From: Dehalococcoidia bacterium
GTDB taxonomy: Bacteria; Chloroflexota; Dehalococcoidia; UBA6926
Assembly: GCA_963666115.2 (NCBI GenBank)
Contig: CAXXET010000007.1
Span: forward strand, 1-64,000
DNA length: 64,000 nt
Reading direction: 5' to 3'
Shown: in pieces, positions 9,782 through 21,337 of the stretch
Position numbering within the stretch: the stretch's first letter is position 1
Layout: every line of letters starts with the position of its first letter
The notes under the pieces: model-generated
What the model was told of the DNA's origin: nothing
Database searches by the model: none
The model's input: the letters and a program-made list of their open reading frames with translations, nothing else
Made by a program: the position numbers and the translations under genes

Positions 9782-10999
9782 CTAGCGCGGGAGGCCAAGG
9801 CCCCGCTGCGCGATGATGTTCTTCTGGATTTCGCGCGTGCCGCCGCCGATGCTCGTGCCGATGGACTGCCAGCCGCGAGCGGGCAGGAAGCCGTCATCAG
9901 GCAGCGCGAAGCGGTCGCCGTTCGTCGGCAGCAGGTTGCCGTACCCGTCCATGATCTGCGCGAGTCCGCGATAGATGTGCTGGAAGAGCTGGTCGCCGAA
10001 GAACTTGACCATCGAGGATTCCTTCTGCGGAATCATGCCCTCGCTCTGCATCCAGCCCACGCGGTAGCACAGGGAGCGCAGCGTCTCGATCTCAATGCGC
10101 CACTCCGCAAGGCGGTGGCGAATCTCCGACCGGTCGATCGGCGTATCGCCGCCCTCGTCGCGCACCATGCCGCACCAGTTGATGAACTGCTCCAGCGTGC
10201 GGAGCAGCTGCGCCGGACGGCCGATATTGGAGCGTTCAAACGAGAGCGTGGTCATGGCCGCGTACCAGCCGCGATTCTCCTCGCCAAGGATATTATTCGC
10301 CGGCACGCGCCAGTTCTCCATGAACAACTCATCCCAGCGGTGATTGTTGGTGCCGTCCTTGATGCCGCGAACCTGGATGCCGGGCATGTAGTTGCCGTCC
10401 TCATCCTTGAGCCGCGCCAGCAAGTACGTGATGCCGCGGTGCTTGGGCGCGTCCGGGTCCGTCCGCACCAGGATATGAATCCAATCGCTCCGGTATGTCC
10501 CCCAGATCTTCTGGCCGCTCACCACGTAGTCGTCGCCGTCACGAACGGCGCGCGTCTTGAGCCCGGCGAGGTCGGAACCGGCGTCCGGCTCCGAGAACCC
10601 CTGCGAGAACTCGATGTCCGCGTTGGCCAAGAGCGGCAGGAACTGCTGCTTCTGCCAGTCCTGCCCGTGAACCATGAGAACCGGCGCCACCAGGCCGCCG
10701 CCGAGCGATGCGGGCGCGTCGTGGTAGGACATCACCTCACGGTACGCAAGCTGCTTTTCAATTGAAGCGTCCTGCCCGCCGTGCTCACTGGGCCAGTGCA
10801 TGGTGTACCAGCCCTTATTGACGAGCTTCTTGGCGAACTGACGGGCAACCTCGTGCCCCGCCTCTCGCTCCTCCTCGTTGCCGTGCCAACCGGCGAGACC
10901 GCCGGTCAGGTCATAGCCGGGATTCTGCCATTCACTCCTGACGAACTGCTCGGCCTCATCACGGATGGCCTGCGCCTCCGCCGAAAATCGAAAGTCCAC
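9782..10999 (-). CDS. Acyl-CoA dehydrogenase family, catalytic (FadE26/FadE29-like) subunit
   Basis: GFSEPDAGSDLA, GQKIW, TTLSFER, GGGTREIQKNIIAQRGLGLPR. Confidence 0.9.
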   Translation of the reverse strand: MDFRFSAEAQAIRDEAEQFVRSEWQNPGYDLTGGLAGWHGNEEEREAGHEVARQFAKKLVNKGWYTMHWPSEHGGQDASIEKQLAYREVMSYHDAPASLGGGLVAPVLMVHGQDWQKQQFLPLLANADIEFSQGFSEPDAGSDLAGLKTRAVRDGDDYVVSGQKIWGTYRSDWIHILVRTDPDAPKHRGITYLLARLKDEDGNYMPGIQVRGIKDGTNNHRWDELFMENWRVPANNILGEENRGWYAAMTTLSFERSNIGRPAQLLRTLEQFINWCGMVRDEGGDTPIDRSEIRHRLAEWRIEIETLRSLCYRVGWMQSEGMIPQKESSMVKFFGDQLFQHIYRGLAQIMDGYGNLLPTNGDRFALPDDGFLPARGWQSIGTSIGGGTREIQKNIIAQRGLGLPR

Positions 11000-11050
11000 A
11001 CCTTCCTCCTTTTGCTTACCCCTTCGTGCAGCGGTTCCGGCTCTGCGGCG

Positions 11051-12253
11051 TTAGCGCGGCAGGCCCAGTCCCCGCTGCGCAATGATCTGGCGCTGCACTT
11101 CAGTTGTGCCGCCGGCGACGCTCAGCGTGCCGGACATGAACGCGCGATTGTTAAGGAAGCCTTCGTTCGGCATGTCAATGCCCTCCTGCGTCGGCAGCAG
11201 GTTGCCGTACTCCTGGAGGCCGCGCGCAAGGGTCTTCATCGTCTTCTGGTACTGCACGTCCGCCCAGAGCTTGCTCATGGAGGATTCCTTCTGGGGAATC
11301 TCGCCGCGGCTCTGCATCCAGCCGACCCGGTAGGCGATCATGCGCAGGGTCTCGATCTCAATGCGAAGATTGGCCATCTGGTTGCGGAAGGGCGCATCAT
11401 CCAGCGGGCTGAAGCCGCGCGTCGCCTTCAACTGGCGGACAAACGCGATGTATTCCTCAATCTGGCGCTGCATTGTGGCGGGCGCCTGGATGTTGGAGCG
11501 CTCGAACGAGAGCGTGGTCATTGCCGTGTACCAGCCGCGGTTCTCCTCGCCGAGGATATACCGCGCCGGCACGCGCCAGTTCTCCATGAACAACTCGTCC
11601 CAGCGATGCCGACCCAGCGCGTCAGGAATCTTGCGCACCTGCACGCCCGGCATGAAGTCGCCCCCCGCGTCCTTGAGCGGCGCGAGCAGGTACGTGATGC
11701 CACGGTGCTTGGGCGCATCCGGATCCGTCCGCACCAGGATATGAATCCACGGATTGCGGTACGTGCCCCAGATCTTCTGACCGCTGATGAGATAGTCGTC
11801 ACCGTCGCGGACGGCCCGCGTCTTGAGCGAACCGAGATCCGAGCCGGCGTCCGGCTCTGAGAAGCCCTGCGAGAACTCAATGTCCGCGTTGGCGATGCCC
11901 GGCAGGAACTCGTCCTGCATCCACTTGGGCGCGGCGAGCATCAGGACCGGCGCGACGAGGCCGCCGCCCAGTGATGCGGGAGCGCCCGCATACGACATCG
12001 CCTCTCGATACGCCAACTGAACCTCGATGGAGGCGTCCTGCCCGCCAAACTCGCTGGGCCAGTGCATCGTCCACCAGCCCTTGTTGACGAGCTTCTTCTC
12101 GAACTCGTTGATGGCCTCCTCGGCCTCATCCACCTGGTGGTGCCAGTTGACCAGGATCTGGGTGTCCCACTTGCCGGGCTCCCATTCATTCCGGGTGAAC
12201 TCGATAGCCTCCTGCTGAATCTGCTGCGCTTCCGGCGTAAATCGGAAGTCCAT
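11051..12253 (-). CDS. Acyl-CoA dehydrogenase family, catalytic-type subunit
   Basis: Same motifs as 9782; start set at MDFRF (12253) by comparison with paralogs. Confidence 0.9.
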   Translation of the reverse strand: MDFRFTPEAQQIQQEAIEFTRNEWEPGKWDTQILVNWHHQVDEAEEAINEFEKKLVNKGWWTMHWPSEFGGQDASIEVQLAYREAMSYAGAPASLGGGLVAPVLMLAAPKWMQDEFLPGIANADIEFSQGFSEPDAGSDLGSLKTRAVRDGDDYLISGQKIWGTYRNPWIHILVRTDPDAPKHRGITYLLAPLKDAGGDFMPGVQVRKIPDALGRHRWDELFMENWRVPARYILGEENRGWYTAMTTLSFERSNIQAPATMQRQIEEYIAFVRQLKATRGFSPLDDAPFRNQMANLRIEIETLRMIAYRVGWMQSRGEIPQKESSMSKLWADVQYQKTMKTLARGLQEYGNLLPTQEGIDMPNEGFLNNRAFMSGTLSVAGGTTEVQRQIIAQRGLGLPR

Positions 12254-12453
12254 GTAATCGATTCCCCCTTTTCCACAACCCGCCGGACGCCGCGTGACGC
12301 CCCGCGAGTTGCCCCCCTGACTCAACTCGTGAACGATAGCACGCGCACGCCGTCAAGGTAAAGCCTCAGCGGGGCGTTCGTTGGTCAACGTCGAATGCCG
12401 CGCGATTCTCCCGATATACTATGACGGTCCAACCCTAAGGAGGCGCGATCTTC

Positions 12454-15400
12454 GTGGAAGAACAATTCTTCAAGAACCCGATTCTGAACTCACCCTATGA
12501 CTACCCGCGGCGCCATTGGCAGCTGCTTGATGGGCAGCCAACGGGAGACATCGTCGAGCACCGGCGGGCAGCCGATTTCATCACGCCCATCCCCAAGCCG
12601 CGCAAGCGGAGCCGAGCACAGCCTGGGCTAATGGTCGACGAAGGCACGGGGCTGTCGACCCAGGACCAGCGTTATGAGGCCGTTGCCGCGCTCATCAGCG
12701 GAATCCGGCAGGAGGTCGACGCATGGAGACAACTCCCGAATGAGCGGGACTGGGGTGTCACGCCCGAAACTGCCCGGCTGCTCAGGCATTGGCGGGACGA
12801 CAGTTTGCGCCAATTCCGCCCATTCTTCTGCCAAGTCGAAGCCGTCGAAACCGTCATCTGGCTAACCGAAGTAGCCCCCAAACAGGGAGCAACGCCTCGG
12901 GTCTTCCTCCAGAACCTGGAGAACGCCAGCCGCGAAGCTAACCCTGAACTCCTCCGCATGGCCCTCAAGTTGGCCACCGGCGCCGGCAAGACAACTGTCA
13001 TGGCCATGCTGATCGCCTGGCAGACCATCAATGCCATCCGCCACCCGGGGAGCAACCGCTTCACCCGGGGATTCCTGGTCGTCACGCCGGGCATCACCAT
13101 TAGGGATCGCCTGCGCGTCCTCCAGCCAAACGACCCGGAGAGTTACTACGATACTCGCGGATTAGTTCCGGAAGACATGCGGCAGGATTTACAGCAGGCG
13201 CACATCATCATCACGAACTTCCATGCGTTGCAGCGCCGCGAGGTTTTCACCATTTCGCGCGGCGGCAAGGCGCTCCTCAGAGGGCGCGGCCCTGACCTCG
13301 AAACTCGCGAGACCGAGGGACAGATGGTCAAGCGGGTCATGCCATCCCTCATGAATATGAAGGGTGTCCTCGTGCTCAATGACGAGGGCCACCACTGCTA
13401 CAGGGAAAAGCCCGGTGAGTCTGAGGAGGGAACTCTGACTCCGGAGGAGCGTGACGAGGCCAAGAAGAACACTGAGCAGGCCCGCGTCTGGATAAACGGC
13501 ATTGAGAGCGTCAAGCGTGTCCTTGGGGTCAGGCAGGTCATTGATCTATCGGCCACGCCCTTCTTCCTGCGCGGCTCCGGCTATGTGGAGGGGACGCTGT
13601 TCCCGTGGACCGTCAACGATTTCTCACTCATGGACGCGATTGAGTCGGGCATCGTCAAGCTGCCGCGCGTGCCTATCGCCGACAACATCCAACGAGACGA
13701 CATGCCACGCTACCGCAACCTCTGGGAGAATATTCGAACGAAGATGCCAAGGAAGGGCCGCGCCCGATCCGGCGACCTTGATCCACTCAGCCTGCCAGTA
13801 GAACTACAAACGGCGCTGGAGGCGTTGTACGGGCACTACGCAAAAACATTCCGCTACTGGCAGGAGGCGGACATCGAGGTCCCACCCTGTTTCGTCATCG
13901 TCTGCAACAACACGGCGACGTCCAAGCTTGTGTATGACTACATCGCGGGCTTCACCCAGCAGACATCTAACGGGACCATACGCGCAGAGCAAGGCCGCCT
14001 GGAGTTGTTCAGGAACTTCGATGAGCAGGGGAATCCCCTCTCACGGCCACACACGCTGCTCATCGACAGCGAACAGCTTGAATCAGGCGATGCGCTGGAC
14101 TCAAACTTCCGCTCTGTGGCCAAAGAGGAAATTGACCGCTTTCGCCGTGAGCGCTTACAGCGTTCCGGCAATCGGGAGGAAGCAGACAACATCTCCGACC
14201 AGGATCTCTTGCGGGAGGTCATGAACACCGTCGGCAAACCGGGAACCCTCGGGGAATCCATCCGGTGCGTGGTTTCAGTATCAATGCTGACCGAGGGATG
14301 GGACGCCAACACGGTTACCCATATTCTCGGCGTGCGCGCCTTCGGAACGCAGCTACTATGCGAACAGGTTGTCGGGCGGGCGCTTCGCCGCAGTTCTTAC
14401 GATCTGAACGAGAACGGGCGATTCGGCGTGCAGTACGCGGACATCCTCGGTGTCCCATTCGATTTCACCAGCAGGCCCGTCATCAGCCCGCCGCAGAAAC
14501 CCGAAAAGACAACGCAAGTCAAATCGATGAGGCCTGAGCGGGATCACCTCGAAATCATTTTTCCTCGCGTTCGCGGCTACCGCGCGGAACTCCCAAAGGA
14601 AGAACTGCGTGCCAGCTTCACGCCCGATTCGACATTCCTGCTGACGCCCGATGTAGTGGGGCCAACCGTTACTCGCGACCAGGCAATTATCGGGGAAGGG
14701 GTCGACCTTACCGTCGTTCACACGGGGAACCTGCGCCTCCCCACCCTTGCGATGCACTTGACCAAGCGGCTCTTGGAGACGAAATTCCGCGACACCAACA
14801 AGGACATCAATCTCAATCTCTACGGACCAGCCCGCAGAATCGTCAGCGAGTGGCTGGAAAACTACCTAGATTGCCGGGGAGGGACGTACCCCGCCCAGCT
14901 GATGTATCAGGAACTCGCGGATCGAGCCTGCAACATCATCATGGACGCTATCAACAGAACCAGGTCGGACGAGCATCCCATCAAGGCCATTCTGGATGCG
15001 TACAACCCAACAGGCTCAACCGCTCACGTGAACCTTACAACGTCGAAGGCGAACCTTTGGGAGACAGCCCCAGACAAGAGCCACGTCAACTATCTCGTTC
15101 TTGACGGTCAGACCGGCGCTTGGGAGGCGGAGTTGTGCCGCGTGGCGGAGTCGAATCCCCGCGTTCGTTCGTACGTCAAAAACCACGGGCTGGGCTTTGA
15201 GGTTCCCTATCGCTCCGGCTCAACGACTCGCAACTACCTGCCGGACTTCATCGTGCTCGTGGATGACGGGCGCGGCAAGGACGATCTGCTGCACCTGGTC
15301 GTTGAGATCAAGGGCTATCGAGGACAAGACGCCAGGGACAAGAAGAGAACCATGGACACATACTGGATACCGGGCGTCAACAATCTTGGGCGCTACGGCC

Positions 15401-15603
15401 GGTGGGCGTTCGCGGAGTTCACGAGCATGTTCGACATTGAGGCGGAGTTCAACAGTGTGATCGAGCAGCAGATTGCGGCGACAGCCTCACCTGAAGACAC
15501 GTCATTTGACACAATGAACTTCAAAGACCTCCTGGCTGCTGCGCCGCTAGACGGCATTAATCTGGAACGATCCCAGACGCCCCCGCGAGACCTCGATCTC
15601 TGA
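12454..15603 (+). CDS. res: Type III restriction enzyme Res subunit (SF2 helicase + PD-(D/E)xK nuclease) with an antitoxin-like C-terminal tail
   Basis: LATGAGKT, DEGH, SATP, TEGWD, QVVGRALR, YLPDF...VEIKG. RBS AAGGAGG and TATACT upstream. Confidence 0.9.
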   Translation: MEEQFFKNPILNSPYDYPRRHWQLLDGQPTGDIVEHRRAADFITPIPKPRKRSRAQPGLMVDEGTGLSTQDQRYEAVAALISGIRQEVDAWRQLPNERDWGVTPETARLLRHWRDDSLRQFRPFFCQVEAVETVIWLTEVAPKQGATPRVFLQNLENASREANPELLRMALKLATGAGKTTVMAMLIAWQTINAIRHPGSNRFTRGFLVVTPGITIRDRLRVLQPNDPESYYDTRGLVPEDMRQDLQQAHIIITNFHALQRREVFTISRGGKALLRGRGPDLETRETEGQMVKRVMPSLMNMKGVLVLNDEGHHCYREKPGESEEGTLTPEERDEAKKNTEQARVWINGIESVKRVLGVRQVIDLSATPFFLRGSGYVEGTLFPWTVNDFSLMDAIESGIVKLPRVPIADNIQRDDMPRYRNLWENIRTKMPRKGRARSGDLDPLSLPVELQTALEALYGHYAKTFRYWQEADIEVPPCFVIVCNNTATSKLVYDYIAGFTQQTSNGTIRAEQGRLELFRNFDEQGNPLSRPHTLLIDSEQLESGDALDSNFRSVAKEEIDRFRRERLQRSGNREEADNISDQDLLREVMNTVGKPGTLGESIRCVVSVSMLTEGWDANTVTHILGVRAFGTQLLCEQVVGRALRRSSYDLNENGRFGVQYADILGVPFDFTSRPVISPPQKPEKTTQVKSMRPERDHLEIIFPRVRGYRAELPKEELRASFTPDSTFLLTPDVVGPTVTRDQAIIGEGVDLTVVHTGNLRLPTLAMHLTKRLLETKFRDTNKDINLNLYGPARRIVSEWLENYLDCRGGTYPAQLMYQELADRACNIIMDAINRTRSDEHPIKAILDAYNPTGSTAHVNLTTSKANLWETAPDKSHVNYLVLDGQTGAWEAELCRVAESNPRVRSYVKNHGLGFEVPYRSGSTTRNYLPDFIVLVDDGRGKDDLLHLVVEIKGYRGQDARDKKRTMDTYWIPGVNNLGRYGRWAFAEFTSMFDIEAEFNSVIEQQIAATASPEDTSFDTMNFKDLLAAAPLDGINLERSQTPPRDLDL

Positions 15604-16016
15604 TGTTTCTCCTGGACACTAACGTCATATCGGACGTGAGACGGCGGGGGCGTGGTGACCCGGGCGTAGCGGAATGGTATGCAAACATCCCTGAAGCGGA
15701 TCTCTTCCTCAGTGTCCTGACAATCGGCGAGGTTCGGCGGGGAATCGAACAATCCCGTCAACGCGGCGACAATCCGCAGGCCGATGTGCTTGAATCATGG
15801 CTTGGTACTGTAAGAGATAAGTTCATGTCGCGTGTCCTGCCAGTTGATGAAGAAGTTGCCGAGACATGGGGACGCATCTCAGCCATCCGGCCGGTGCCCG
15901 TCGAGGACGCGCTGCTGGCCGCAACTGCTATCGTCAACGATTTCACGCTTGTGACTCGCAACACGAAACACGTTCAGGGGCTGGGGGCTCGCATCCTAAA
16001 TCCCTTCACAGGGTAA
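15603..16016 (+). CDS. vapC: VapC/FitB-type PIN-domain toxin
   Basis: MFLLDTNVIS, LSVLTIGE, DALLAATA, LVTRN, LNPF; TGATG stop/start overlap with res. Confidence 0.92.
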   Translation: MFLLDTNVISDVRRRGRGDPGVAEWYANIPEADLFLSVLTIGEVRRGIEQSRQRGDNPQADVLESWLGTVRDKFMSRVLPVDEEVAETWGRISAIRPVPVEDALLAATAIVNDFTLVTRNTKHVQGLGARILNPFTG

Positions 16017-16050
16017 GATGATATGATCGCAAGGTGCCGGGAGGTAAATC

Positions 16051-18888
16051 ATGGCAAGGCGAGCGAAGCCCAAATCCGGCAAGGCGGTGGAAACGCTCAC
16101 TCACGCCGGAGAAAAGCGCCGCAATCTGCCCAGCGCGGAGCATGAGCCGCTGATGCGCGACGAGGACAAGAGCCCGATTCGCCTGGCCCTCGAGCGCCGC
16201 AAACCCGATCTTGACCCCCAATTCGTCTGGCGGGGCAAGTCGGAGAACCCTCTAGAGATCGATGCCCCGCCCCTGTACATCCAGGAGCGCGTGCATCCAA
16301 AGGCGCTGATCGATGATCTAACCCGCGCGAGCAGGCGAGCCGAGCAGGACGCCGCCGACCAGACGCAGAGCGGCTTCGCCGACCTGTTCTCTGATTTCAA
16401 CGGCCTGCCCTCCGAGGACGCCAAGACAGAGTTCTACCAGCATGACGCTAACTGGTCGAACCGCATGATCCTGGGCGACAGCCTGCACGTGATGGCGTCC
16501 CTGGCCGAGCGAGAGGGACTCCGGGGCAAGGTGCAGTGCATCTACATAGACCCGCCCTACGGCATCCGATACAACTCCAACTTCCAGTGGTCCACCACCA
16601 GCCGGGACGTGCGGGACGGCAACAAGGACCACATCACGCGGGAGCCTGAGCAGGTCAAGGCCTTCCGGGACACGTGGCGGGACGACATCCACTCCTACCT
16701 GTCATACCTGCGGGATCGACTCATAATCGCACGCGACCTCCTCTCTGACAGCGGCTCAGTCTTTGTCCAGATAGGCGATGAGAACGTCCACCGAGTGCGC
16801 GCGGTGATGGATGAGGTGTTCGGGGAGAAGAACTGCGTTTCAATTCTGACGATTCAAAAGACCAGTAGTCAGACGGACAAGAATCTCTCTTCAGTCTCTG
16901 ACTATTTGCTATGGTATGCAAGAAATGAACAAATGCTTAAGTTCCGAAGGCCCTTCTTAGAGAAGGGCGCGGATTTTACCGCCGGCGGTCAATATTCTAG
17001 GCTACAAATGCCTGACTTCAGCAGAACACCAATGACGGCTGAACAGCGTTCGAATAGGGCAAGTATCCCTCTCCACGCTAGGGTGTACAGGCACGACACG
17101 TTGACAGCCCAAAGTGGAGGGGAGACTACTGGTTTCGAGTTCATCGACCAAGGTCGTAAATTCAATCCAGGTCGCGGCTTTTGGAAGACGAATTTCACGG
17201 GGCTGACGCGCCTGTCCCGTTCTATGCGTCTAGGACATGCGCGGAACAGTTTGAGCTACATCAGATTCATTGATGATTTTTCCGTCACGCCCATCGGTAA
17301 TCTCTGGACAGACACTCTGACAGGTTCTTTCACGGAGGACAAGATCTACGTTGTTCAGACCGCACAGAAGATCGTCCAACGCTGCGTCCTCATGACTACC
17401 GACCCCGGAGATTTGGTACTTGACCCAACCTGCGGTTCCGGCACAGCGGCCTACGTCGCAGAACAGTGGGGACGCCGGTGGATCACCATCGACACGTCAC
17501 GAGTGGCATTGGCGCTCGCGCGCGCTCGCATCATGGGCGCGCGCTACCCCTACTACTTGCTCGCGGACAGCGCGGACGGGCGGACAAAGGAAGCCGAACT
17601 CTCACAGAAGGACATCGACGAGGCGCCAACGTACGGCAACATCCGGCAGGGATTCGTGTATGAGCGCGTGCCTCACATTACGCTGCGAGACATCGCCAAC
17701 AACGCGGAGATCGACGTCATCTGGGAACAGTATCAGCAGGAGCTGGAACCGCTCAGAACGCAGCTGAACGATTCACTCGGCGAGTCATGGGAGGAATGGG
17801 AGATTCCGCGTGAACCGGAGCCTGACTGGTCTGAGGATGCGCGCGGCGTCCATTCCGAATGGTGGGAGAGGCGCATCGCCCGCCAGAAGGAAATTGATGC
17901 CTCCATCGCGGCCAACGCCGAGTTCGAATACCTCTACGACAAGCCGTACGAGGATCGGGGCAAGGTGCGGGTCGCTGGGCCGTTTACCGTTGAGAGCGTG
18001 TCGCCGCACCGGACTCTCGGTGTCGACGAGAATGGCGACACCTTTGACAGCATCGCTGAGGCGCGGAACGTGTACTCGACAGGGTACGACTTCGGCACGG
18101 CAATCCTGGAGAATCTCAAGCGCTCCGGCGTCCAGCAGGCGCATCGGGAGGACAGGATTGAGTTTTCGTCTCTGACGCCGTGGCCCGGCGACCTGGTGTG
18201 CGCCGATGGCCGCTACATCGAGGGCGGCGCAGGTTCTGCCGACGATAGCGAGCCTGTCACCGGCACAGAGCGTCGCGCGGCCATTTTCATCGGGCCCGAG
18301 TTCGGCACTGTTTCGCGGCCCGATCTTGTCGAGGCGGCGCGCGAGGCTGCCGAGGCGGGTTTCGATGTGCTTATCGCCTGCGCGTTCAATTACGATGCGC
18401 ACTCAACTGAGTTCGAGAGGCTTGGGAGCATCCCCGTCCTCAAGGCGCGGATGAACGCCGATCTCCACATGGCAGACGAGTTGAGCAACACCGGCAGCGG
18501 CAATCTCTTCGTCATTTTCGGCGAACCGGACATCGACGTCCTGGACGCGCCGGACGACCAGATTCAGGTCAGGGTCAACGGTGTGGACGTGTTCCACCCG
18601 AATTCCGGCGAGGTGCGCAGCGACGGCCCAGACGGCATCGCGTGCTGGTTCATCGACACCGACTACAACGAGGAGGCGTTCTTCGTGCGACAGGCCTACT
18701 TCCTCGGCGCAAACGACCCCTACAAGGCGTTGAAGACAACACTCAAGGCGGAGATCAACGAGGAAGCATGGGCATCTCTCCACAGCGCGGTCTCGCGGCC
18801 GTTCGAGAAGCCGGAGACCGGGCGCATTGCCGTGAAGGTTATCAACCACCTGGGCGACGAGGTCATGAAGGTCTACCGCGTTGACTAG
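16051..18888 (+). CDS. mod: Type III RM Mod subunit / site-specific DNA methyltransferase
   Basis: IYIDPPY, VLDPTCGSG, WGRRWITID, C-terminal IAVKVINHLGDEV; RBS GGAGGT. Confidence 0.9.
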   Translation: MARRAKPKSGKAVETLTHAGEKRRNLPSAEHEPLMRDEDKSPIRLALERRKPDLDPQFVWRGKSENPLEIDAPPLYIQERVHPKALIDDLTRASRRAEQDAADQTQSGFADLFSDFNGLPSEDAKTEFYQHDANWSNRMILGDSLHVMASLAEREGLRGKVQCIYIDPPYGIRYNSNFQWSTTSRDVRDGNKDHITREPEQVKAFRDTWRDDIHSYLSYLRDRLIIARDLLSDSGSVFVQIGDENVHRVRAVMDEVFGEKNCVSILTIQKTSSQTDKNLSSVSDYLLWYARNEQMLKFRRPFLEKGADFTAGGQYSRLQMPDFSRTPMTAEQRSNRASIPLHARVYRHDTLTAQSGGETTGFEFIDQGRKFNPGRGFWKTNFTGLTRLSRSMRLGHARNSLSYIRFIDDFSVTPIGNLWTDTLTGSFTEDKIYVVQTAQKIVQRCVLMTTDPGDLVLDPTCGSGTAAYVAEQWGRRWITIDTSRVALALARARIMGARYPYYLLADSADGRTKEAELSQKDIDEAPTYGNIRQGFVYERVPHITLRDIANNAEIDVIWEQYQQELEPLRTQLNDSLGESWEEWEIPREPEPDWSEDARGVHSEWWERRIARQKEIDASIAANAEFEYLYDKPYEDRGKVRVAGPFTVESVSPHRTLGVDENGDTFDSIAEARNVYSTGYDFGTAILENLKRSGVQQAHREDRIEFSSLTPWPGDLVCADGRYIEGGAGSADDSEPVTGTERRAAIFIGPEFGTVSRPDLVEAAREAAEAGFDVLIACAFNYDAHSTEFERLGSIPVLKARMNADLHMADELSNTGSGNLFVIFGEPDIDVLDAPDDQIQVRVNGVDVFHPNSGEVRSDGPDGIACWFIDTDYNEEAFFVRQAYFLGANDPYKALKTTLKAEINEEAWASLHSAVSRPFEKPETGRIAVKVINHLGDEVMKVYRVD

Positions 18889-20125: not shown

Positions 20126-21337
20126 CTACCTTGGCAGGCCCAGCCCGCGTTGGGCGATGATGTTGGGGCCTAGCGCCAGGCCGCCGCCGCCGCCGAAGCC
20201 TGTTGTCATGGAGAGGGCATAGTTGGTGCCGTACTTGCCGTTGCCCGGCGCGCGGCTTTCGCCTTTGAGCAAGGCCCTGTATGGGCCGATGGCCTTGGCG
20301 AGCGCCGGCCAGAACGTGAACTTGGCCGTCGCCAGCGCGCGGTAGCCGGAAATCGCGCCCTCTGCCTGGGGTACCTCGCCGTTCGCCTGCATCCACGCCA
20401 CACGATAAGCCAGCATCCGATCTGCCTCCAGCGTGATTCGCGCATCGGCCAACACATGCCGGATAATGTCGTTCTTCAGCGGCGACTCCCCGCTGAACGT
20501 CACGCCGCGCATCTCCTGGAGGTAGCGGTCAAGAACACCAATCAGCCGCGCCGCGCTGTCGATGCCCGTCCGCTCGAAGTTGAGCGTCGTCATCGCCGCG
20601 TACCAGCCGCGGTTGACCTCGCCGATGATCTGGTGGCGCGGCACACGGACTTCGTCCATGAACACCTCGTTCCACCGGCGCCGCCCGAGCATGTCGTACA
20701 AAGGACGCAGCGTTATGCCGGGCATCTGGTTGCCCTCATCGTCCTTGAGCTGCATGGCCAGGTACGTGATGCCCCGATGCTTGGGCGCCTCCGGGTCCGT
20801 CCGCACCAACACGTGGTACCAGTTGGCGAAGTGGGAGCCGGACGACCATATCTTCTGGCCGGTGACGACGAAATCATCGCCGTCCTCCACGCCGCGCGTC
20901 GCCAGCGAGGCCAAGTCGGTTCCCGCGTTCGGCTCAGAGAATCCCTGCGCCCAGTTGACGGTGTTGTTTCGCATCCCGTCCAGGAACGTGTCCTTCATCC
21001 AGGGCGTGCCGTGGATCATGATCGCGCCTGCGACGTTGGCCTGCGGCTGGGACGCCGGCGCGTTGTGGTACGCCATTTCCTCGGAGTAAACCAACTGCCG
21101 TGAGATCGGCGCGTCCTGCCCGCCGTACTCCTCCGGCCATGCCATCGTCCACCAACCGCGGTCAATCAGCTTCTGTTGGAACTCCTCCGCGTGGTCGCGC
21201 GCGCCGGGATTGTCATAGTCGTACGACCACACGTTCATCGCGTAGGCGTCGTAGTCCTTGGGGTCCCATTCCCTGGAGAGAAACTCCCGCAGCTCGCCTC
21301 GAAAGGCCTCATCGGCGGGGTTCGTTGAGAAATCCAT
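20126..21337 (-). CDS. Acyl-CoA dehydrogenase family, catalytic-type subunit (Gly-rich C-terminal variant)
   Basis: GFSEPNAGTDLASL, TTLNFER, GFGGGGGLALGPNIIAQRGLGLPR. Confidence 0.9.
   Translation of the reverse strand: MDFSTNPADEAFRGELREFLSREWDPKDYDAYAMNVWSYDYDNPGARDHAEEFQQKLIDRGWWTMAWPEEYGGQDAPISRQLVYSEEMAYHNAPASQPQANVAGAIMIHGTPWMKDTFLDGMRNNTVNWAQGFSEPNAGTDLASLATRGVEDGDDFVVTGQKIWSSGSHFANWYHVLVRTDPEAPKHRGITYLAMQLKDDEGNQMPGITLRPLYDMLGRRRWNEVFMDEVRVPRHQIIGEVNRGWYAAMTTLNFERTGIDSAARLIGVLDRYLQEMRGVTFSGESPLKNDIIRHVLADARITLEADRMLAYRVAWMQANGEVPQAEGAISGYRALATAKFTFWPALAKAIGPYRALLKGESRAPGNGKYGTNYALSMTTGFGGGGGLALGPNIIAQRGLGLPR

Follow-up and report, generated by a model that had tools for sequence, protein, structure and literature searches.

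Links between restriction-modification (RM) systems and toxins are known, but to our knowledge the physical link has been worked out for PrrC only. In PrrC/EcoprrI an RM operon encodes a latent ribonuclease (RNase) whose activity the RM proteins are believed to suppress, a guardian idea that has been reviewed together with PARIS (in sections of PMC3710099 and PMC12707154). Anantharaman et al. 2013 reported HEPN toxin domains repeatedly fused to RM nuclease or helicase subunits and proposed a PrrC-like model (PMC3710099). The main text of Matelska et al. 2017 describes PIN genes in type I RM operons from which antitoxin elements are apparently missing, with the authors' remark that nobody had yet shown toxin-antitoxin (TA) and RM components to interact directly (PMC5499597). 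Makarova et al. 2009, in the part of that survey drawn on here, list antitoxin partners of PIN toxins with no restriction subunit among them (PMC2701414). Here we analysed a type III res-vapC-mod operon from a Dehalococcoidia bacterium (Chloroflexota; UBA6926), contained in a stretch of 64,000 nucleotides (assembly GCA_963666115.2, contig CAXXET010000007.1, positions 1 to 64,000 of the forward strand; hereafter the window). The restriction subunit, Res, ends in what appears to be the toxin-binding tail of a VapB antitoxin, directly before a gene for a VapC toxin, and we consider it rather probable that Res itself is the antitoxin of this VapC.

As with PrrC, the toxin gene is embedded in an RM operon. 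PrrC, however, is a HEPN anticodon nuclease with its own ABC-ATPase regulator in a type Ic RM system and involves no antitoxin-derived peptide, whereas here a 137-aa PIN/VapC protein accompanies a type III system and the predicted inhibitor is a VapB tail fused in frame to Res. The HEPN-RM fusions, in the section of PMC3710099 that treats them, are a convergent wiring of an RNase toxin to the nuclease/helicase subunit and not to the methylase, but there the toxin domain is the fused part, whereas in the present case it is the antitoxin module, and the toxin remains a protein of its own. Similarly, the PIN genes of Matelska et al. are transcriptionally coupled to RM genes, but in type I contexts and with no fused tail in the main-text description, Supplementary Figure S7 lying outside that scope (PMC5499597). 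A fused tail would explain concretely how an antitoxin gene comes to look absent. A literature search of article texts without supplements found no paper in which part of an antitoxin is described as fused to a restriction subunit, and a search for BPTD_3080, the Res family concerned, returned 0 papers. What appears to be new, judging from the sequence, is an RM-linked toxin of the PrrC kind whose restriction subunit carries the antitoxin peptide, a link that can be read from the sequence. If true, this would show a first-line defence coupled to a suicide or arrest response, or an RM gene made hard to lose. For annotation, TA finders that expect a separate antitoxin gene would score such a vapC as an orphan.

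In VapBC and FitAB modules the tails of the antitoxins VapB and FitA fold over the active site of the toxin, and the role of such segments is inhibition; in FitAB a tail arginine fills the acidic site of the toxin. The present locus shares with these modules a FitB-like toxin, homology to the C-terminus of Phd-type VapB and an antitoxin coding sequence that comes first and overlaps the toxin start. Unlike them, it has no separate antitoxin gene and no DNA-binding or dimerisation domain, hence no autoregulation, and the carrier is a presumably stable 1000-aa enzyme as opposed to a small labile antitoxin.

Res, its C-terminal tail and the adjoining VapC

The three genes are co-directional (Table 1). 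An earlier note, made from the DNA letters alone, had Res continuing in frame through a linker into a tail whose stop overlaps vapC, with mod next after a gap of 34 nt, and the open reading frame (ORF) list and the sequence agree with this to the base. Its remark that there is no separate antitoxin ORF also holds: no frame other than res ends at the vapC start, no separate antitoxin gene lies upstream of vapC, and on the + strand at the site where one would be expected there is no other ORF of >=40 aa. A scan for promoters and terminators found nothing beyond the level expected from shuffling, and the intervals separating res, vapC and mod contained no such site. The stop/start overlap recurs at all 8 other fused loci described below (in one, L044, as an abutment within 4 nt), and res and vapC may be translationally coupled through TGATG.

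Table 1. Features of the res-vapC-mod locus (positions within the window).
Feature	Position	Strand	Basis or remark
res	12454..15603	+	GTG start, 1049 aa, C-terminus ...GRWAFAEFTSMFDIEAEFNSVIEQQIAATASPEDTSFDTMNFKDLLAAAPLDGINLERSQTPPRDLDL; ORF list
res core (aa 1-1000), superfamily 2 (SF2) helicase and PD-(D/E)xK nuclease, BPTD_3080-family type III restriction subunit (predicted)	12454..15453	+	NF046055, PF04851, nuclease residues
Linker (aa 1001-1020, SVIEQQIAATASPEDTSFDT), variable native Res C-terminal end and a few residues	15454..15513	+	Low identity, pLDDT 59-64
Putative antitoxin tail (aa 1021-1049, MNFKDLLAAAPLDGINLERSQTPPRDLDL) and res stop codon	15514..15603	+	Profile of free Phd-type VapB tails, BLASTP
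TGATG, res stop / vapC start overlap	15601..15605	+	Sequence; TGA at 15601-15603 shares its A with the vapC ATG
vapC, predicted FitB-like PIN-domain toxin, 137 aa	15603..16016	+	PF01850, FitB match
mod, type III N6-adenine methyltransferase, 945 aa	16051..18888	+	PF01555, PADLOC MTase_III

Res matched NF046055 with 1263.9 bits (cut-off 800) over profile positions 1-968 of 970 (Res aa 6-1001); since the profile is exhausted at aa 1001, ~48 residues are extra. A PF04851 (ResIII) match scored 33.5 bits, and the P-D ... E-x-K nuclease residues (D81, E101 and K103 in the numbering of the fragment) were invariant in 25 aligned homologues including Res. PF19778 was matched in homologues only, with none in Res at E up to 0.01, and PADLOC gave only a marginal REase_III match for Res and no model for VapC. 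The mod product matched PF01555 (104.5 bits) and the PADLOC model MTase_III PDLC03632 (1334.9 bits, profile positions 74-983 of 983). By these comparisons Res is a complete type III restriction subunit of the BPTD_3080 family, with predicted ATP-dependent cleavage of unmethylated DNA. VapC matched PF01850 with 56.2 bits (gathering cut-off, GA, 23.6). When a profile of its clade was run against solved structures, FitB of Neisseria was the best match (2h1o/2bsq/2h1c, E 2.6e-26), which bears out the FitB/VapC type recognised in the earlier note. D5, E43, D102 and T118-R119-N120 were invariant in 20 VapC homologues, and we regard the protein as a FitB-like PIN toxin whose RNase activity and toxicity are predicted.

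The same note had taken the tail for a VapB-type C-terminal segment, and two kinds of comparison uphold this. A hidden Markov model (HMM) derived solely from the C-terminal 38 aa of 27 different free-standing Phd-type antitoxins, with no fused protein included, ranked Res aa 1021-1049 first of 1194 six-frame segments of the window (E 3.3e-4; second 0.039). In BLASTP the tail aligned over its entire length with the C-terminal 29 aa of a Phd/YefM antitoxin, confirmed as such by Pfam, from an alphaproteobacterial metagenome-assembled genome (MAG; 13/29 identical, E 7e-9) and also matched a Phd antitoxin of its own genome (E 2e-4). That genome contains two VapC paralogues (46% and 42% identical), each preceded by a normal Phd/YefM antitoxin (Pfam) whose last ~30 residues are similar to Res aa 1021-1049. 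No Pfam or NCBIfam match was found in the last 69 aa of Res, and therefore only the toxin-binding part seems to be present and not the Phd fold. A tail profile had no meaningful match among Protein Data Bank sequences (best E 0.079, an unrelated repeat protein). The tail is thus, as far as such comparisons go, a homologue of the C-terminal ~30 residues found in free VapB of the Phd/YefM type, with the DNA-binding domain absent; K1024, L1027, A1028, P1031, L1037, R1039 and R1045 were invariant in 12 tails. The two Phd/YefM-VapC pairs of the same genome lie on G000 contigs at C4:274408-274809 and C3:35579-35977 (L014, L015), and it is conceivable that they cross-neutralise with the Res tail.

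An AlphaFold2 model of Res aa 851-1049 (25-row alignment, mean pLDDT 81) was confident for the nuclease domain to ~aa 1010; beyond this, pLDDT was 59, 64, 50 and 50 per ten-residue block, where aa 1023-1029 form the single short helix. Relatives that lack the tail stop inside the region equivalent to the linker, and therefore the whole native Res has been kept and the tail added. The linker was also considered as a remnant of a Phd domain, which was rejected because its counterpart in the alignment is the variable C-terminus native to Res without a tail. The linker of another fused protein, P0018 (...EAMREYYMSLDFKELL), resembles ...RVREYYRSLNFKELL of free short antitoxins, a hint that fusion or fission turns the one form, fused tail or short free antitoxin, into the other. 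The Res fragment P0036 may be a decaying copy, since part of its tail is deleted internally (...EGIDLDPRDIEF).

The in-frame ATG of Met1021, at 15514, raises the possibility that the tail is made as a free peptide, from this internal start or by proteolysis of the linker, with Res a mere carrier or precursor. The predicted disorder of the linker would suit this, as would the antitoxins beside the closest unfused VapCs (55-59% identity; L019, L020, L023, L059), which are only 70-73 aa long and have no recognisable DNA-binding domain. However, the 24 nt upstream of the ATG (CCTGAAGACACGTCATTTGACACA) contain none of GGAG, GAGG or AGGA, in keeping with the earlier statement that no ribosome-binding site precedes it. 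The codon is CTG, CAT or CTC, and not a start, in the fused loci L018, L022 and L179, and the matching position in free antitoxins is a conserved hydrophobic residue internal to the protein. An internal start at 15514 was rejected on the unconserved codon and the missing Shine-Dalgarno-like motif, and the free-peptide explanation as a whole appears improbable.

Recurrence and history of the fusion

A profile of 9 tails was searched against proteins of 106-2000 aa and gave 40 matches, namely 19 BPTD-type Res, 3 Res of the L044 type, 10 C-terminal fragments of Res and 8 non-Res proteins that bear the same tail on various small N-terminal parts. The 19, which include that of the window, are full or near full length; in all, 32 Res or Res fragments carry the tail, 22 of them at full or near full length. 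A reading of the fusion as a singleton had come from a single-sequence word search (Res aa 990-1049, proteins of 576-1836 aa) that returned only itself, and was overturned by the profile search. The public name of the fused Res is 'DEAD/DEAH box helicase family protein' (5 named of 27 members).

A pattern scan of genome contigs found a Res of ~960-1050 aa with a tail directly before vapC in 3 of 80 loci with vapC relatives. Two have the order res-tail, vapC, mod, one in a Dehalococcoidia MAG (L018, Res 1331 bits) and one in a Pseudomonadota MAG (L022, 1177 bits), and both Res are BPTD_3080 members. The third, in a deltaproteobacterial MAG (L044), has the order mod, res-tail, vapC, and its Res (284 bits) falls below the family cut-off and belongs to a related subfamily. 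From the class, 401 genomes were sampled, 58 of which had the Res C-terminal domain (E <=1e-10); tail, vapC and mod occurred together in 5 of the best 30 Res loci, which were inspected. The phylum sample (401 genomes, 12 with loci examined) added one further fused locus. In a metagenome scan with VapC, a fused Res was present in 0/80 among the matches listed, which were mostly short contigs, 11/80 having an upstream frame that hit the contig end. A vapC homologue begins within a few bases of the res stop in all 9 readable tail-bearing loci, so that the refuting case named in the note, the tail in Res homologues lacking vapC, did not occur among them, and mod is next in 7 of the 8 that are of the BPTD type. 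The layout with vapC between res and mod, which the note had proposed to look for in other genomes, recurs at 6 other loci.

That a missed stop or frameshift hides a small antitoxin gene, as an assembly or sequencing artefact, is very unlikely because the same open frame is found in many independent assemblies, and we give this explanation next to no weight. Independent assemblies supply 18 further proteins of full or near full length with an uninterrupted frame, some of them encoded on contigs of 3-4.8 Mb, and 8 more loci read as DNA show it as well. Moreover, the product of a separate gene would be only ~29-45 residues long, and in several homologues there would be no codon at which to start it. 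In a search of sequencing runs for the junction, the best run shared 0.07 of words, and there was no RNA run among those listed.

Across 20 fused Res the mean pairwise identity was 0.60 in the nuclease core (last ~80 residues), 0.25 in the linker and 0.63 in the tail, so that the frame has been preserved across a freely drifting linker. On a careful maximum-likelihood tree of Res C-terminal halves (43 rows, tail columns excluded) the state changed between tail and no tail at least 5 times. Fused rows formed a Pseudomonadota clade on a branch of ~1.0 changes per site, the pair P0018 and P0023, a group of the window with L182 that has two tail-less rows within it (95/94), and a large group of 13 with a nested clade bearing a different tail. 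Given this scatter, the junction must often have been exchanged, the 3′ extension of res moving along with it. The L044-type tail shares 15/19 identical residues with another Phd-VapB subtype (E 7e-9), and the L044 VapC is 49% identical to that subtype versus 41% to the VapC of the window. Judged by its Res subfamily, gene order, tail and VapC, the L044-type fusion is independent of the type in the window. Together with the fusions to other toxin families described below, we estimate that fusion arose at least 4 times, involving three toxin families. The alternative raised in the earlier note, taken as a single accidental fusion, finds no support in the 22 full or near full-length fused Res and the analogues with other toxin families.

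Cassettes at the res-mod junction

The best 30 class loci were compared at the junction, contents being Pfam-checked where marked and otherwise judged by eye. VapB tail and vapC were present in 5, a second kind of tail in 2 (L192, L202) and a Res fused to an MNT nucleotidyltransferase in 2 (L193, L195; Pfam). A separate MNT-like ORF directly followed res in 7, of which L187 only was Pfam-confirmed (MNT and HepT, unfused), and RHH and ParE followed it in 1 (L190; Pfam). In another 7 mod came directly after res, 4 had other inserts, including a Bro-N protein in L184 (Pfam), and 2 were unreadable. We conclude from these gene orders that the res-mod junction is a site for TA cassettes. Over loci L178-L207 and L209-L220 it is a hot spot for small inserts, and by eye, Phd-like and PIN genes (L213) and DUF2283-like small ORFs (L216, L219) were also seen there.

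Two of these arrangements are close counterparts of the one in the window. In L193 (G232) and L195 (G255), Res continues in frame into MNT (PF01909, 54 and 49 bits); both Res belong to one clade (100/99), and in L195 a gene for a HepT-like RNase follows (84 bits, Pfam). The likeness to HepT-MNT modules is that the same Res family has MNT fused at its C-terminus with HepT next, and the unfused pair at the junction in L187; the difference is that toxin family and antitoxin, there an enzyme, are other ones and are absent from the window. In L192 (G221) and L202 (G127), Res bears a second, unrelated C-terminal extension (...WLADAGG...IPRRRS.L). It is followed in L192 by a different PIN gene (40 bits, Pfam), whereas in L202 mod is directly next and there is no PIN gene, leaving a tail without its toxin. 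Among wider representatives, one Res C-terminus was followed by a near-threshold Unstab_antitox match (21.7 bits versus GA 23.3) and another by an MNT domain. On the strength of such parallels we tentatively suggest that the Res C-terminus is a general docking platform for toxins, to which at least three toxin families (FitB-like VapC, the second PIN and HepT) have been wired via fused antitoxin modules. The restriction complex would then be the sensor of a modular abortive infection system, in which removal, truncation or jamming of Res, for instance by a phage anti-restriction factor, proteolysis or mutation, would free the toxin.

The cassette turnover is also the ground for a neutral ratchet, in which a TA cassette lands at the res-mod junction with its antitoxin gene beside the res stop, a simple deletion fuses the antitoxin tail to Res, and the toxin then forbids loss of the tail, with no meaning for restriction or phage defence. 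The operon promoter would make the DNA-binding domain dispensable, while the tail would still neutralise VapC. Many unfused cassettes at the junction are as expected from such a process (MNT-like in 7/30, RHH and ParE in L190, Bro-N in L184, against a direct res-mod junction in 7/30), as are the rapid turnover implied by at least 5 changes of tail state among the 43 tree rows, the second-type tail without a PIN gene in L202, and the frameshifting of vapC in 2/9 loci. Against it stand the at least four origins with three toxin families, the persistence of the fusion over deep divergence, as on the long Pseudomonadota branch, and the clean removal of the whole antitoxin N-domain each time with the native Res end retained, although these three are also compatible with mutational bias. 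We regard a neutral ratchet, which the note does not raise, as a serious rival though unlikely on balance, and favour Res as the working antitoxin of VapC.

Further Res C-terminal domains, in P0057, P0080, P0059, P0125 and P0041, continue into GmrSD_N, DUF1016_N, a methylase, leucine-rich repeats (LRR)/ankyrin or a near-threshold Unstab_antitox, and some of these extensions may be gene-calling read-through on fragments. In L019 (1958-4414) a type IV restriction gene of the GmrSD kind (PF03235 122.6 bits, PF07510 85.3 bits) precedes the short antitoxin-VapC pair by 31 nt.

Res as a possible restraint on VapC

The proposed mechanism starts from the arrangement set out above, in which a complete type III Res is followed by a flexible linker of ~20 aa and by what corresponds to the C-terminal toxin-binding segment of a Phd-type VapB only, and vapC, with its stop/start overlap, sits inside the res-vapC-mod operon. 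Very likely the tail, made up of a short helix (FKDLLAA) plus an extended part that contains two invariant arginines, would fold onto VapC and block its acidic active site, and coupled translation would tether each VapC to a Res. VapC would then probably be silent only while full-length Res is made and remains intact, and truncation, degradation, shut-off or sequestration of Res would free it to cut RNA and stop growth. Candidate triggers are phage inhibition of Res, proteolysis, truncating mutations and shut-off of synthesis. For PrrC a trigger, T4 Stp, is known.

Two mutually compatible uses can be envisaged. The first, which we put forward tentatively, is a back-up for when a phage disables or outruns restriction, a guardian of the PrrC/EcoprrI kind; the second, somewhat more doubtful, is punishment of res loss, that is, addiction.

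Binding of the tail was examined by complex prediction. VapC with Res aa 1000-1049 scored 0.59, compared with 0.00 for the best of 3 controls, and the runs had a contact agreement of >=79% and a partner pLDDT of >=59. The mark applied was reached by 58/80 solved complexes and 2/110 mismatched pairs, with 7 of the 80 solved and both passing mismatches at <=0.60; own alignments were used, making these counts only rough. Since VapBC and FitAB complexes have been solved, the pass may reflect structures already familiar to the predictor. In view of the homology, the outcome agrees with the proposed binding but is no proof of it.

Several points weigh against Res as the antitoxin of VapC or against its use in defence. 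The prediction tool grades a complex score of this size as 'weak support'. The fourth acidic PIN position of VapC is His, as in 4/20 aligned homologues, with Gln in 1 more; one homologue with this residue replaced pairs with a normal antitoxin. Fused members make up only a minority of the family (5 among the 58 Res-bearing class genomes; 3 of the best 150 representatives reach the tail in a search with Res aa 851-1049, most being fragments, so that this fraction is rough). The toxin seems dispensable in some hosts, since vapC is frameshifted in L181 and L209. Conservation of the tail is what toxin addiction alone would be expected to give once the fusion exists, and is no proof of a link to restriction: loss of the tail would be lethal with the toxin present, and the conservation therefore points to a working TA pair and not to service to restriction. 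Lastly, should vapC be translated only by ribosomes that arrive at the res stop, VapC would also drop when an early stop codon cuts res short, and such dependence weakens the version in which res mutants are punished.

The frameshifts in vapC of L181 (G176) and L209 (G691) both lie near codon 109, a one-base deletion and a one-base insertion ~3 nt apart in the stretch GCCGCCACCGC, and may reflect decay, a slippage-prone site or long-read error. A Fic-like ORF (by eye) follows the broken vapC in L209.

It is highly improbable that VapC, bound by the tail but not inhibited, serves the restriction complex as an active accessory nuclease, with PIN cleavage of RNA or DNA belonging to restriction. 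The tail is homologous to segments that are inhibitory in VapBC and FitAB, and members of this VapC clade are also found apart from RM genes, paired with ordinary antitoxins. Tethering by a long linker would permit such recruitment, and RNases of the HEPN type have repeatedly been fused to RM nuclease/helicase subunits (in the section cited of PMC3710099).

The RM island as a whole looks acquired. Its G+C content is ~58% (0.58) versus 63-65% in the flanks, and matches at E <=1e-3 occurred in 5/21 other genomes of the genus, none above 36% identity. Inside mod the G+C content falls to 0.50 at 16800-17400 versus 0.57-0.62 around it, and the dip may mark an exchanged target-recognition region. 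The island is flanked on the minus strand, at 9782-12325 and 20126-21337, by three mutually similar (by eye) paralogous genes of ~400-424 aa.

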